From Simkaniaceae bacterium (GTDB lineage: Bacteria; Chlamydiota; Chlamydiia; Chlamydiales; Simkaniaceae), in NCBI GenBank assembly GCA_028281675.1, contig JANQJL010000057.1:2077-66076 (forward strand): a stretch of DNA of 64,000 nt, given 5' to 3'. Position numbers and translations under genes: made by a program. Below are positions 43,339-46,727 of the stretch, in pieces (positions within the stretch are counted from its first letter, which is position 1; each line of letters opens with the position of its first letter). The notes below the pieces were generated by a model. The model was not told the DNA's origin and made no database searches. It saw only the letters and a list, made by a program, of their open reading frames with translations.

Positions 43339-43437
43339 TGTTGATATTTTTTATATCTAATAGTTTTAGTTTTCTTGCAAACATATATTGAACCTTAACC
43401 TCTGAACGAGGTAGAATGTTCCTTTGTTACCCCAAAT

Positions 43438-43521
43438 GCTCGGGTGGTGGAATTGGTAGACACAAGGGACTTAAAATCCCTTGGCCTCACGGCCGTGCGG
43501 GTTCGAGTCCCGCCTCGAGCA
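43438..43521 (+). tRNA. tRNA-Leu (anticodon UAA), class II with long variable arm
   Basis: I folded it by hand. Acceptor GCTCGGG/CTCGAGC, D-arm GTGG..AATTGGTAGA, anticodon stem AGGGA/TCCCT with loop CTTAAAA, variable arm GGCC-TCAC-GGCC, T-arm GCGGG-TTCGAGT-CCCGC, discriminator A. No encoded CCA. Confidence 0.93.
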
Positions 43522-43578
43522 GACTTAAATTTCTCAAAGTGAGTAAGGTGTGATTGGATGGGAATTTCCTCATTTGTT

Positions 43579-44262
43579 TTAACGTAAGAATTCCTTTAAT
43601 TTGCTGTTTAATGGAAGAGGGGAGGAGTAGTGTTCAGTAATTTTCCCTTCTTCGAGAAAATAAGCTTGGTCCAGGATTTTTTTTGCAAACTCCATATCTT
43701 GGGTAGAGATGATCCAGCCAACCCCGTTTTGTTTCCATTGATGGATAAGTTTAATGAGAATTTGAGTATTTTCGGGATCGAGTGCTGATGAAGGTTCATC
43801 TAAGAGGACAAAAGAAGGATTAAGGAGAAGAGCGCGAGCAATAGCAACTCGCTGCCTTTGGCCTCCAGAGAGTTGGTGGGGCATGCGCTTTGCAAGGGGC
43901 TCGATATCAAATTTCTTGAGCATGGCAGTGACCTCCTCTTTTATTTCTAGATTGCTGAGAAATTTTTGTTTGGATAGGGGTTGTGCACAGTTTTGAAATA
44001 CAGTCATATGGGGAAATAATTCATAGGATTGTGAGACGAAACCAATAAGCTGGCACCTTCTTTTGGGAGAAAGATTTTTAAGCGTTTGCTTTTGGCAGCT
44101 GACTTCCCCAGAGCATTCTTTTTCAAGCTGGGCGATACATCTAAGAAGGGACGTTTTGCCTGAGCCACTTTTCCCCAAAAGGAGGGTGACTTGACCAGGA
44201 AAAATTGTGATAGAAATGTCTTGTAATCTTTTCGGTAAGATAAGGGATTTAATACTTAACAT
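43579..44262 (-). CDS. polar amino-acid ABC transporter, ATP-binding protein
   Basis: Walker [10 protein letters not shown], signature [15 protein letters not shown], Walker [12 protein letters not shown]. Confidence 0.9.
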
Positions 44263-44920
44263 AGGAAAACCTTTTTTCTAAACGTTTTGTCAGTCTATTG
44301 AGTATTGCCGAGAGGGATCCATAGAGTAGAGCAATGGCACAGTAAATCGGAACAGGCTCCATTTCTCTGGAGACAATATTCATTCCAATTCGAGTCAGTT
44401 CGAGCATTCCTATTGAAGAAGCAATAGCCGTGCTTTTCAATAGAGATTCAAATTCATTATTAATTGAGGGGAGAGCTAAGCGGAGGGATTGTGGGAGAAT
44501 GATTGCAAATAGGGTCTCCCACTTTGAATATCCCAATACCGAGGCTGTTTCCCAATAGGAAGAGGAGAGTGCATTGATAGCTCCTCGGATAAATTGGGCA
44601 ACATATCCAGAGGAGCAGATTCCCAAGGCAGTAATAGAGGCAGCAAATGGTGGAAGGGAAAAACCAAATAAATCTGGAATGACGAAGTAGATGATTAATA
44701 ATTGAACATAAAAAGGAACAGCTCTCGAGGCAAATGTCCACCCATTGATTAGCTTTGTGATAATGGGAATTTTGAGCTTTTCACATGAGAAAACCCCAAG
44801 GAAGATCCCAACCGTTATACTCAAGGCACTTGCAAGAATAAAAAGTTCTAGAGTAATAACCATTCCTTTAAGAAAAAGAGGCAATGATTTCAAAATAAGA
44901 GAAAAAAAACTAGTTATCAT
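44249..44920 (-). CDS. polar amino-acid ABC transporter, permease
   Basis: HisM/GlnP-type permease with EAA-like loop ASVLGYSKWETLFAIILPQSLRLALPSINNEF. Start set to ATG 44920, which overlaps the binding-protein stop as ATGA. Confidence 0.88.
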   Translation of the reverse strand: MITSFFSLILKSLPLFLKGMVITLELFILASALSITVGIFLGVFSCEKLKIPIITKLINGWTFASRAVPFYVQLLIIYFVIPDLFGFSLPPFAASITALGICSSGYVAQFIRGAINALSSSYWETASVLGYSKWETLFAIILPQSLRLALPSINNEFESLLKSTAIASSIGMLELTRIGMNIVSREMEPVPIYCAIALLYGSLSAILNRLTKRLEKRFSYVKY

Positions 44921-45660
44921 TTTCTCAGTCCCCACTTCTTCTCGAGCTTAAAGATAACTCCCTCATCTCTAAGTTCTTCAATAGCTTTTTTGATTTTTAG
45001 AGCCAATTCTTGATCATCTTGATTGATGCAAATACCGTTCCCTAGAGACTGCATTTCTTCTGGCAAAGGAAGAAAAAGCACCTTTAAATTAGGATATTTA
45101 GCTTGAAAACGTGGGAGAAGTGAAGGGTCGATTGCGGAGGCTCCCGATTTGCCATATTTGAGATCTAATATGACACTATCAATACCATCAAAGTATTTAA
45201 GAGAGAGGTTTGGACAGGTTTTAAAAATACCTTCTTGATAAGAACCTGCTTCGACACAAATGGGCTTTTTAAGAGTTGCCAAGTCTGAAAGAGTTTCAGT
45301 TTTATTGGGAATATTGTCCCAAAAGATTAGAGGCACCTTATCTAACTTGTCCCCTTGATAATAGACCATCTCCATGCTCTTTTCTCTGTCTTTAGTAATC
45401 GAAATTCCCCAAATGAGAGCATCAACTTTTTTTTGCTTGAGAGCAAGCATAAGACTAGGCATGCTCCCATAGTCTCGAATAATGAGGGGACGATCTAATT
45501 TGCGGGAAACTTCCTTAGCAATATCGATATCAAAGCCCTCGTATTCGCCCTTTTCATCTAGACTAACAAAAGGGGCATAACCGCTGGTTGTGCCGATGGT
45601 AAAAGATTTTGCAAATAGGTTCATTGCCAACAATATGAATAATACAATGTATTTAAGCAT
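44917..45660 (-). CDS. amino-acid ABC transporter substrate-binding protein (family 3)
   Basis: Signal peptide, FTIGTTSGYAPF, GFDIDIAKEV. 247 aa. Ligand not inferable from sequence. Confidence 0.85.
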   Translation of the reverse strand: MLKYIVLFILLAMNLFAKSFTIGTTSGYAPFVSLDEKGEYEGFDIDIAKEVSRKLDRPLIIRDYGSMPSLMLALKQKKVDALIWGISITKDREKSMEMVYYQGDKLDKVPLIFWDNIPNKTETLSDLATLKKPICVEAGSYQEGIFKTCPNLSLKYFDGIDSVILDLKYGKSGASAIDPSLLPRFQAKYPNLKVLFLPLPEEMQSLGNGICINQDDQELALKIKKAIEELRDEGVIFKLEKKWGLRK

Positions 45661-45685
45661 AAAAAAAACTCCATAAAAATATTTT

Positions 45686-45729
45686 TAAAAAATAATAAAG
45701 CGAGAAATCAGCCTAAAAAACTGATTTTC
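45686..45729 (-). promoter_or_regulatory. weak terminator/attenuator-like hairpin between leader ORF and the binding-protein gene
   Basis: Minus strand GAAAATCAG-TTTTTTAGG-CTGATTTC (7-8 bp AT-rich stem) followed by TCGCTTTATTATTTTTT. An alternative pairing CCTAA/TTAGG is possible. Confidence 0.25.
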
Positions 45730-45740
45730 GTTAGGAAATC

Positions 45741-45803
45741 TTAGATATGATGGTGATGATGACGGTAGGAAGAAGCTAGAGAAGAAAAATAAGCCTTTTT
45801 CAT
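45741..45803 (-). CDS. 20-codon His-rich leader peptide MKKAYFSSLASSYRHHHHHI
   Basis: Minus strand GGAGG-TCATT-ATG (perfect SD, 5-nt spacer). Five consecutive His codons (CAT CAT CAC CAT CAT) before the TAA stop. The ORF ends 80 nt upstream of the binding-protein ATG. Confidence 0.5.
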   Translation of the reverse strand: MKKAYFSSLASSYRHHHHHI

Positions 45804-45967
45804 AATGACCTCCGTCGGTTTAAAGATGGTCTTATTGTTACAGATCTCCTTAAACAACGCAATAAATAAATATGCCGAAAAATTTCAGTTCTCATCTCTT
45901 TAATTAAGGTTCAAGAGGAGGGAGTCTCAAAAAAATGTCATTAGCCGTTTATAATTAAAGATATAAA

Positions 45968-46727
45968 TTGATTTTCACTAAAGTTACCATTTTGGTAACA
46001 TTTGTGTATGAATCAAAATGCAAGGGGAAAGTAGTTGAAAATGAGGGGTTTATCCAACTGTACGAAAAAATCGTACAGTTGAAGTTAGAAGCGCCTGATG
46101 GGAAAATGAGAGAGACAGACACAGCAAACACCGAAACAATTTTTCGGATCATCCAGTCGGTCCCTTCTCCCAAAGCGGAACCATTCAAGAGATGGCTTGC
46201 GAAGGTGGCTACGAGCGGATCCAAGAGATCGAAGATCCTGAAATTGCAACTCAAAGAACCCGCGCCATTTACAAAGCCAAGGGGTATAACGATGGATGGA
46301 TCGAAAAGCGGATGCGTGGCATTGCTATTCGGGAGGAACTAATCGATGAGTGGGATAAAAGAGGGATTAAACTCCAAAGAGAGTATGCCATCCTAACAGC
46401 TGAGATTTCAAAGGCAACCTTTGGGCTCACTCCTTCAGAATATAAGAAGCATAAAGGACTTGATCAGGAAAACCTTCGGGACCATATGACTGACTTAGAG
46501 CTTATTTTTTCGATGTTAGGAGAAGCCGCAACCAAAGAAATTACTGTTAATCGAGATGCCAAGGTTTCGGCCAGAACTCTTCTGCCGCCAAAATGGGTGG
46601 GAAGATTGCAGGAGATGCAAGAAAAAAACTTGAGCTTGAAAGTGGAAAAAAAGTTACTTCCAAAGAAAATTTTCTCAAATTAGAGAGGGAAACTCCTAAA
46701 GTAAAAATAGAAGATGGTCACGAATAG
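45968..46727 (+). pseudogene. decayed Bro-N/phage-antirepressor-type (DinD-like) gene
   Basis: Family-typical segments fall in three frames: FRIIQSVPSPKAEPFKRWLAKV, then GYERIQEIEDPEIATQRTRAIYKAKGYNDGWIEKRMRGIAIREELIDEWDKRG...NLRDHMTDLELIFSMLGEAATKEI, then GFGQNSSAAKMGGKIAGDARKKLELESGKKVTSKENFL. They join only if one G is restored at about 46207-46209 and another at about 46573-46574. The N-terminal ~50-80 aa of the family are missing. Confidence 0.8.

Follow-up and report, generated by a model that had tools for sequence, protein, structure and literature searches.

Sensing of charged tRNA by leader peptides is classical. In tnaC-tnaAB of Escherichia coli and in mgtL-mgtA and corL-corA of Salmonella, the ribosome on the leader decides whether Rho acts before the first structural gene; at tna, whose tnaB product is an amino-acid permease, the ribosome stalls at the stop codon and the stall is induced by free tryptophan, and at mgtA a rut site is exposed by alternative stem-loops. 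The pyrBI leader open reading frame (ORF) of E. coli runs through the terminator and a ribosome close to the polymerase leads to read-through. Attenuators with His codons are said to have been predicted by Vitreschak et al. in 2004 before candidate histidine transporter genes of gamma-proteobacteria. Leaders with His codons regulate the his operons of proteobacteria and of some Firmicutes (PMC9413887, PMC2965389), RNA attenuators are listed for his biosynthetic operons only (PMC9413887), and in Firmicutes the control of hisXYZ and yuiF is by histidine T-boxes or HisR (PMC9413887). Here we analyse a 64,000-nucleotide (nt) stretch of DNA from a Simkaniaceae bacterium of the phylum Chlamydiota (GenBank assembly GCA_028281675.1, contig JANQJL010000057.1, positions 2,077 to 66,076), referred to as the window, in which a short minus-strand ORF ending in a run of His codons stands before an amino-acid ATP-binding cassette (ABC) importer operon. 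Judged from its sequence, this ORF is very probably the leader of a histidine-responsive cis-regulator, and its wiring appears to differ from that of the textbook his/trp attenuator, in that a hisL-type hairpin switch is probably lacking.

Direct reading of the minus strand agrees in every respect with an earlier note on this DNA, which had described a well-initiated 20-codon ORF with five His codons ending 80 nt before the importer genes. The ATG (45803-45801) follows GGAGG after a spacer of five nt, TCATT. The five His codons are followed by a single ATC codon (45746-45744) and the TAA stop (45743-45741), and exactly 80 nt (45740-45661) separate the stop from the ATG (45660) of the gene for the substrate-binding protein (SBP). 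This is the only run of at least five His residues in a six-frame translation of the whole window, and no other convincing His-run or similar leader was found in the window or in the flanks of the loci fetched for comparison. Each of the eight members of the window's clade has a predicted sigma-70-type promoter just 5' of the leader (in the window, upstream of 45803), with TTGC(A/G)(T/G), a spacing of 17-18 nt and a TAnAAT-like box whose variants are (TGT)AACAAT, GACAAT, AAAAAT, TACAAT and TATAAT. A generic promoter scan made no call on the predicted -10 box. Transcription would be expected to start near 45827 and, because the conserved predicted promoter lies directly 5' of the leader, the leader is predicted to be the first cistron of the transcript.

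The chlamydial relatives of the SBP number in the hundreds. For comparison we used the best 80 loci from species-representative genomes, 79 metagenome loci and four close relatives retrieved by exact look-up, and counted as orthologous those with SBP identity of at least 44% and at least 200 nt of upstream sequence. Under a fixed criterion (a short ORF with HHH or at least four His in its last 13 residues, no more than 450 nt upstream and on the same strand), a His-run ORF precedes 59 of the 76 orthologous loci. Other strand sequence from the same loci gave nine matches in 851 kb, two of which are true leaders further upstream, and the expectation by chance is ~0.005 per locus (450 nt). At ~60 unrelated family-3 SBP loci (22-38% identity) no His-run ORF was found. 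All seven of the closest relatives, whose SBPs are 66-84% identical, have the leader intact and in frame (MNKAFLSSLAFSCRHHHHHI; MEKMFVSYLASSCRHHHHHI; MNKQTLISFSTAVLSFRHHHCI; VNFQTFAFFALSGLSCRRHHHHI; MNKQALFSFSIVVLSFRHHHHI; MNKPAIFSFSVVILPSRHHHHI; MNLQIFLAFSSFSSRHHHHHI). The conserved short His-run ORF that the earlier note had proposed looking for before orthologues is thus present in all of the closest relatives and in most distant ones. Its loss or frame disruption in close relatives, which the note had named as refuting, is not seen. Before the leaderless orthologues no leader with a run of another amino acid was found, only two degenerate His-rich ORFs.

Across 62 leaders the His-codon run is the only conserved coding feature. 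Length varies around a median of 24 codons (12-48 amino acids) and the N-terminal parts are unrelated between sub-families. The cluster comprises 3-8 His per leader, with CAT and CAC used 272 and 41 times respectively; interruptions of the run, such as HHRHHH, HHCHHH or HSHHRFHH, keep the frame; and the last His is followed by exactly one codon before the stop in 47 of the 62 leaders and never by more than three. In most leaders the ATG lies 4-9 nt after GGAGG, AGGAGG or AGGA, the start codons of some long-leader sub-families being uncertain. The use of both His codons, the in-frame interruptions and the combination of Shine-Dalgarno (SD) sequence and ATG therefore indicate a translated ORF whose codons rather than peptide matter, that is, a regulatory leader. 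One long-leader sub-family (28-44 amino acids, nine loci) shares the N-terminus MKQ(D/E)LN.IFC.RR.Q.SRAQ and the end HSHHRHHHHS; it has no recognisable SD and its spacers are longer, with two hairpins.

The genes downstream bear out the proposed three-gene polar amino-acid ABC importer: SBP, permease and ATPase are encoded in one overlapping row and match Pfam SBP_bac_3, BPD_transp_1 and ABC_tran. The best solved relatives of the SBP are the arginine-binding ArtJ proteins of Chlamydia trachomatis and Chlamydia pneumoniae (3DEL, 4.8e-44). In an alignment with E. coli HisJ, its sequence verified against 1HSL, the leader-bearing clade retains the contacts to the amino-acid backbone (Y14, S72, R77 and D161 in HisJ numbering) and differs from ArtJ at positions 52 (Met vs Phe), 69 (Trp vs Thr), 117 (Glu vs Gln) and 161 (Asp vs Glu). 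Position 52, Met in the SBP clade, is Phe in LAO as well as in ArtJ. Orthology of the SBP with ArtJ was considered and rejected on account of these four pocket differences, an identity of ~35% and the stand-alone, leaderless state of artJ. In C. trachomatis, C. pneumoniae and Chlamydiifrater, artJ adjoins no permease or ATPase gene and has no His leader before it. The C. trachomatis gene lies 68 nt downstream of a DAHP synthase gene. In C. pneumoniae, glnPQ is under ArgR control.

Orthologous operons of Dependentiae/Babeliales have, instead of a leader peptide, a same-strand gene of the YerC/YecD TrpR family (HisR family) 7-80 nt upstream. These YerC/YecD-family genes (96-122 amino acids, ~300-400 nt before the SBP gene) were seen at eight loci, and three further loci labelled Dependentiae have a His-rich leader instead. 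The family is that of the histidine repressor HisR (PMC9413887). We argue that the occurrence of a leader peptide and of a HisR-family repressor on one orthologous transporter speaks for histidine as the relevant substrate or signal, and the substrate of the importer would most probably be histidine or a basic amino acid. The retained backbone contacts and the Met at position 52 of the SBP are further, indirect pointers to a HisJ-like specificity. An operon usually labelled an "arginine" or "polar amino acid" transporter would thereby gain the annotation of histidine-responsive and probably histidine-importing, and one orthologous transporter would be under two unrelated histidine regulators in two different phyla whose members live inside cells.

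A second conserved helix, P0, overlooked in the earlier note, would lock the SD of the leader itself. Its 5' strand in the window, GACGGAGG, pairs with the anti-SD CCUACCGUC, which runs up to and onto the first His codon; the duplex alone has -12.4 kcal/mol, and a fold of the leader transcript gives -12.5 kcal/mol (z = -1.94). All eight clade members have CCGUC unchanged, with 94-100% of P0 cells paired. Over 63 loci the native duplex averages -10.67 kcal/mol, compared with -9.05 for mismatched partners (p = 5e-6) and -6.51 for shuffled ones (p = 1e-18). When the best partner of the SD region was sought anywhere in leader plus spacer, it ended between -12 and +3 nt of the first His codon in 34 of the 63 loci, with ~10% expected. 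Other sub-families build the same helix from other sequences (e.g. GCAAGGAAG:CUUCCUUGC and ACAAGGAA:UUCCUUGU). Eight loci have a lipobox-like L-P-C or S-P-C before the His run, and these residues are probably there because the nucleotides CUUCCUUGC form the P0 anti-SD strand.

The hairpin and U-rich tract that the earlier note had placed between leader and SBP gene are both present. With its boundaries taken, as throughout, from minimum-free-energy folds, the window hairpin reaches -9.1 kcal/mol (z = -4.06), none of 200 shuffles is as stable, and CUUUAUUAUUUUUU follows directly on its 3' side. The eight-member clade keeps its position; 89% of cells are paired, and three sequences have a compensatory change at one pair. 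Family-wide, spacers are more stably folded than their dinucleotide shuffles (mean z = -1.53, n = 51) and hairpin arms pair far better with their own partner than with arms from other loci (-11.6 vs -3.7 kcal/mol). The hairpin starts a median of ~9 nt past the leader stop, usually following a U run. In most sub-families a run of 5-8 U lies directly after the stop, where the window has GAUUUCC, and U content is higher in the 8 nt leading up to the hairpin (5.64 of 8) than in the 8 nt that follow (4.30 of 8). Eleven loci share the hairpin frame AACGCU...AG(Y)CGUU, in whose 3' arm a pyrimidine bulges out, and vary in the upper stem and loop; this frame could be a protein-binding site or reflect shared ancestry. 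As these RNAs are A+U-rich, thermodynamic tests are weak against weak helices.

How the His codons could act on the operon has several possible answers. In the canonical hisL/trpL-type attenuator proposed in the earlier note, the hairpin (45730-45701) and U tract would be an intrinsic terminator; a ribosome stalled on His codons would free GAUUUCC to pair with GAAAAUC and so block the terminator, and a ribosome at the stop would cover GAUUUCC. The geometry fits, as the candidate strand begins at the first base past the stop; in one relative, L002, these strands form a hairpin of seven perfect base pairs (-6.8 kcal/mol, z = -3.4); 7 of the 10 nt after the window hairpin are U; and the hairpins of the three closest relatives have U-rich tails. 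Yet the alternative fold amounts to only -1.5 kcal/mol in the window (z = -0.94) and is absent in L086, at 84% identity, as well as in L082 and L164-L168. An antiterminator joining the post-stop segment to the 5' arm was rejected for the family, since native sequences equal shuffles (mean z = -0.10, n = 40), and none of the leader SD region, 5' untranslated region (UTR), 5' ORF part, pre-His segment or His run pairs with the hairpin arms or tail above mismatched or shuffled controls. No terminator-specific U tail appears family-wide, the 8 nt after the hairpin having 4.30 U against a spacer background of 4.34; the core stem has only 2 G-C pairs and a generic terminator scan made no call here. 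No Rfam family matches the leader region, and His_leader (RF00514) has no match at its gathering threshold, nor at E <= 10 on 45600-45900. A canonical switch is thus unlikely. What stands of the hisL-type proposal is the conserved, well-initiated ORF with a terminal His run before an importer; the mutually exclusive hairpins, which the earlier note suggested seeking by folding, are weak in the window, strong in L002 and absent in L086. A hungry-codon frameshift that would carry ribosomes through the hairpin was also rejected, as only 6-7 of 50 loci are open in this way and close relatives stop early. Translational control in the manner of ermC or cat, with the ribosome-binding site (RBS) of the SBP gene sequestered by the transcript's 5' end or the leader's 3' end until leader ribosomes free it, seems to us improbable. 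It would draw on a helix predicted between the 5' UTR and the SBP-gene SD, AUCUUUA (45827-45821) with UGGAGUU (45673-45667) on the minus strand, which in the eight-member clade has 80% of cells paired and four pairs changed on both sides; the helix lies 4 nt from P0, so that a ribosome loading at the leader start would cover it, and P0 would serve as a self-reinforcing latch on the mature mRNA. Covering the whole leader lowers the opening energy of the RBS in the window from 4.7 to 3.5 kcal/mol. Across the family, however, this helix is no better than its controls (-6.22 vs -6.17 for mismatched and -5.87 for shuffled partners, not significant), and pairing of the His run or post-stop segment with the downstream RBS is not above controls and is slightly worse. 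Moreover, ribosome footprints imposed on the leader make the RBS easier to open by an average of only 0.2-0.7 kcal/mol (1.2 in the window) and, so long as P0 is closed, the leader of a mature mRNA would see few ribosomes. The earlier note's fallback, stalling that remodels the downstream RBS, finds little support in these numbers. Neither a textbook terminator/antiterminator switch nor simple RBS sequestration is conserved in the leader family.

A switch of reversed polarity, similar to pyrBI, would need no antiterminator, in keeping with the absence of one. Here a ribosome at the leader stop, following the polymerase closely, would hinder the base of the hairpin and allow read-through, and a stalled ribosome would let transcription stop, leaving the operon on with ample histidine and off when it is scarce. 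The tightly kept one-codon spacing from His run to stop is consistent with this, and in about half of the loci the hairpin lies 2-10 nt past the stop, within or at the edge of the footprint of a terminating ribosome; in the other half it lies 11-20 nt or more away and out of reach. The U tail is not enriched, P0 would be left without a role, and it would make no sense physiologically to switch an importer off just when its likely substrate runs short, so we hold reversed polarity to be very unlikely. Least credible of all, and extremely improbable, is that the ORF is not a leader and that its product is a working micropeptide with a His tail, perhaps one that binds metal or is anchored in the membrane and acts together with the transporter. 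Such a product would explain the strong SD and ATG, the hydrophobic, Ser-rich N-terminal part, the lipobox-like residues before the His run in some sub-families and the fixed C-terminal position of the His tail. Beyond that tail, though, neither sequence nor length is conserved; the P0 anti-SD lies just where the Cys codon and the codons rich in pyrimidines are, and the window has Tyr where relatives have Cys. A sequestered SD would be odd for a structural gene, and the Dependentiae have a repressor gene in the leader's place.

The reading we prefer, and regard as evenly poised between right and wrong, is that the mini-ORF is a cis-acting leader peptide which reports the supply of charged tRNA-His and sets importer expression through premature termination. 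With ample histidine, the first ribosome would complete the leader and depart, P0 would close so that no further ribosome loads, and transcription of the bare leader would end early, within the 80 nt of spacer, either at the hairpin and U-rich tract or beyond them. With histidine scarce, a ribosome stalled on the His codons would hide the anti-SD and keep P0 open, a second ribosome would load behind it, and the two would cover the leader from start to stop; termination would be suppressed, the operon transcribed and the importer made. Access of Rho to the rut-like, C-rich leader may depend on ribosome occupancy, as at tna and mgtA, with the hairpin and U-rich tract as a pause or release site. 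A contribution may also come, in the window, from the weak alternative hairpin nearby (45740-45734 with 45729-45723). PMC7755916 cites work in which Rho is functional in Chlamydia and responds to ribosome stalling.

Several properties of the leader family bear on this proposal. Leader ORFs are C-rich and G-poor (C 27%, G 10%, C/G = 2.8; C 27% and G 8% for the leader ORF of the window), and C/G is still 2.06 in the part before the anti-SD, with anti-SD and His run left out of the count; it is 0.87-0.96 in upstream DNA, the spacer, the SBP gene and the first 60 nt of that gene, which encode a hydrophobic signal peptide. The spacer is C-poor (C 13%) and U-rich, with one stable hairpin. From leader start to first His most sub-families have 14-17 codons, and there is therefore room for exactly one ribosome behind a stalled one. 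As no conserved antiterminator was found, we suggest that termination depends on whether ribosomes occupy the leader RNA. Without an antiterminator, an intrinsic terminator could not be regulated by a ribosome that never touches it, and a factor that reads bare RNA is favoured for this reason. Occupancy-dependent termination would account for the latch, the C-rich leader and C-poor spacer, the terminal His run and the leader length, and a trp/his-type hairpin switch is less likely. Premature termination as the read-out is a balanced judgement, that this termination is Rho- or occupancy-based is a tentative one, and the antiterminator-free switch as a whole, in which a stalled ribosome unlocks the leader SD and cover by two ribosomes shields the rut-like leader from Rho or another factor reading bare RNA, is doubtful in its full form.

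A number of observations weigh against this proposal. The promoter, ribosome stalling, the polarity of control and the site of termination are predictions made from the DNA. The solved proteins nearest to the SBP bind arginine, not histidine. The window hairpin with its U-rich tail has the look of a weak intrinsic terminator, which would need no Rho, and an intrinsic terminator that lacks an antiterminator would give no regulation. At ~9 nt past the stop, the hairpin is also placed such that its base could be obstructed by a ribosome terminating at the stop, with the opposite polarity as the result. The rut-like stretch is only ~60-70 nt long and partly paired in P0, and its C enrichment could stem from the avoidance of G-containing structure or of SD-like sequence.

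Coordinates of the features discussed are collected in Table 1. Beyond the operon, a tRNA-Leu(UAA) gene (43437-43522, plus strand) is convergent with the operon end, 56 nt from the ATPase stop. On the other side, a plus-strand ORF with a Bro-N match (45968-46342) overlaps another without a Pfam match (46192-46683); the pair (45968-46683) resembles one frameshifted BRO/DinD-like gene, divergent from the leader promoter.

Table 1. Features of the leader region and importer operon, in window coordinates
Feature	Coordinates	Strand	Basis	Remarks
Predicted -35 box, TTGCGT	45857..45862	minus	clade conservation	conserved as TTGC(A/G)(T/G) at the same place in 8/8 clade members
Predicted -10 box, AACAAT	45834..45839	minus	clade conservation	preceded by TGT (extended -10)
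Leader SD region, GACGGAGG	45809..45816	minus		5' strand of P0; SD GGAGG at 45813-45809
Leader ORF, MKKAYFSSLASSYRHHHHHI and stop	45741..45803	minus	sequence reading	20 sense codons
Anti-SD, CCUACCGUC	45761..45769	minus		3' strand of P0; its last base is base 1 of His codon 1
Five His codons, CAT CAT CAC CAT CAT	45747..45761	minus	sequence reading	proposed sensor
Candidate antiterminator strand, GAUUUCC	45734..45740	minus		pairs with GAAAAUC, 45729-45723
Hairpin, CGAAAAUCAGUUUUUUAGGCUGAUUUCUCG	45701..45730	minus	fold	composed of CGAAAAUCAG UUUUUUAGG CUGAUUUCUCG
U-rich tract, CUUUAUUAUUUUUUAAAAAUAUUUUUAU	45673..45700	minus	sequence reading	3' of the hairpin
SD of the SBP gene, GGAG	45669..45672	minus		8 nt before ATG 45660
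Substrate-binding protein, SBP_bac_3	44917..45660	minus	Pfam	247 amino acids
Permease, BPD_transp_1	44249..44935	minus	Pfam	
ATPase, ABC_tran	43579..44262	minus	Pfam	

Chlamydiae are obligate intracellular bacteria that depend on host amino acids. To our knowledge they largely lack classical starvation regulators, and their amino-acid sensing is mostly obscure beyond tryptophan. The earlier note knew of no described leader-peptide attenuation in this lineage, which calls for a qualification: putative trpL peptides, atypical and unvalidated, have been proposed in Chlamydiaceae (PMC3937554, PMC7755916), and that of C. trachomatis has been argued to be a poor attenuator (PMC7755916). The statement holds for histidine and for transporters, as our literature search returned no description of the present element nor of any histidine or transporter leader in Chlamydiae. 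The Chlamydiaceae trpL proposals share with this element the leader peptide and the phylum, but they are long or atypical and limited to trp operons. Our analysis suggests that sensing by codon-run leaders exists and is widespread in Chlamydiae. If the proposed mechanism is true, Chlamydiae and some Dependentiae have a distinct class of amino-acid sensor that is widespread among them, and the importer would be the histidine uptake system long sought in these intracellular auxotrophs.

ArtJ (3DEL, 3QAX, 3N26) is the closest solved relative of the SBP and comes from the same phylum, but artJ of the Chlamydiaceae stands alone without a His leader and its product differs at the four pocket positions. 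Histidine-transporter control in proteobacteria and Firmicutes likewise places uptake genes under a histidine-specific sensor, and differs from the chlamydial leader in transporter family, phylum and RNA architecture. From pyrBI comes the precedent of an attenuator that lacks a classical antiterminator and in which termination hinges on how far the leader ribosome is from the polymerase; unlike in pyrBI, the chlamydial leader ORF stops before the hairpin. The gating of Rho by a leader ribosome, known from tna, mgtA and corA, is the effector model we would favour by analogy for the chlamydial leader. It would differ from tna and mgtA in that the ribosome would stall at hungry His codons and in that the open or closed state of the leader SD would be the sole conserved alternative. 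With hisL (RF00514) the element shares a short, well-initiated upstream ORF with consecutive His codons near its end, the presumed sensing of charged tRNA-His by stalling, and a hairpin and U-rich tract before the first structural gene. Unlike hisL, it has neither an RF00514 match nor conserved mutually exclusive hairpins, its SD is locked by an anti-SD beside the His codons, and it would control uptake in Chlamydiae rather than biosynthesis in enterobacteria. What appears new is the lineage and the transporter target; the sensing principle would be the same, and the architecture shows no conserved antiterminator of the kind that defines the hisL/trpL class. An SD latch with one hairpin and no antiterminator thus lies outside the textbook model and can be tested with reporters.

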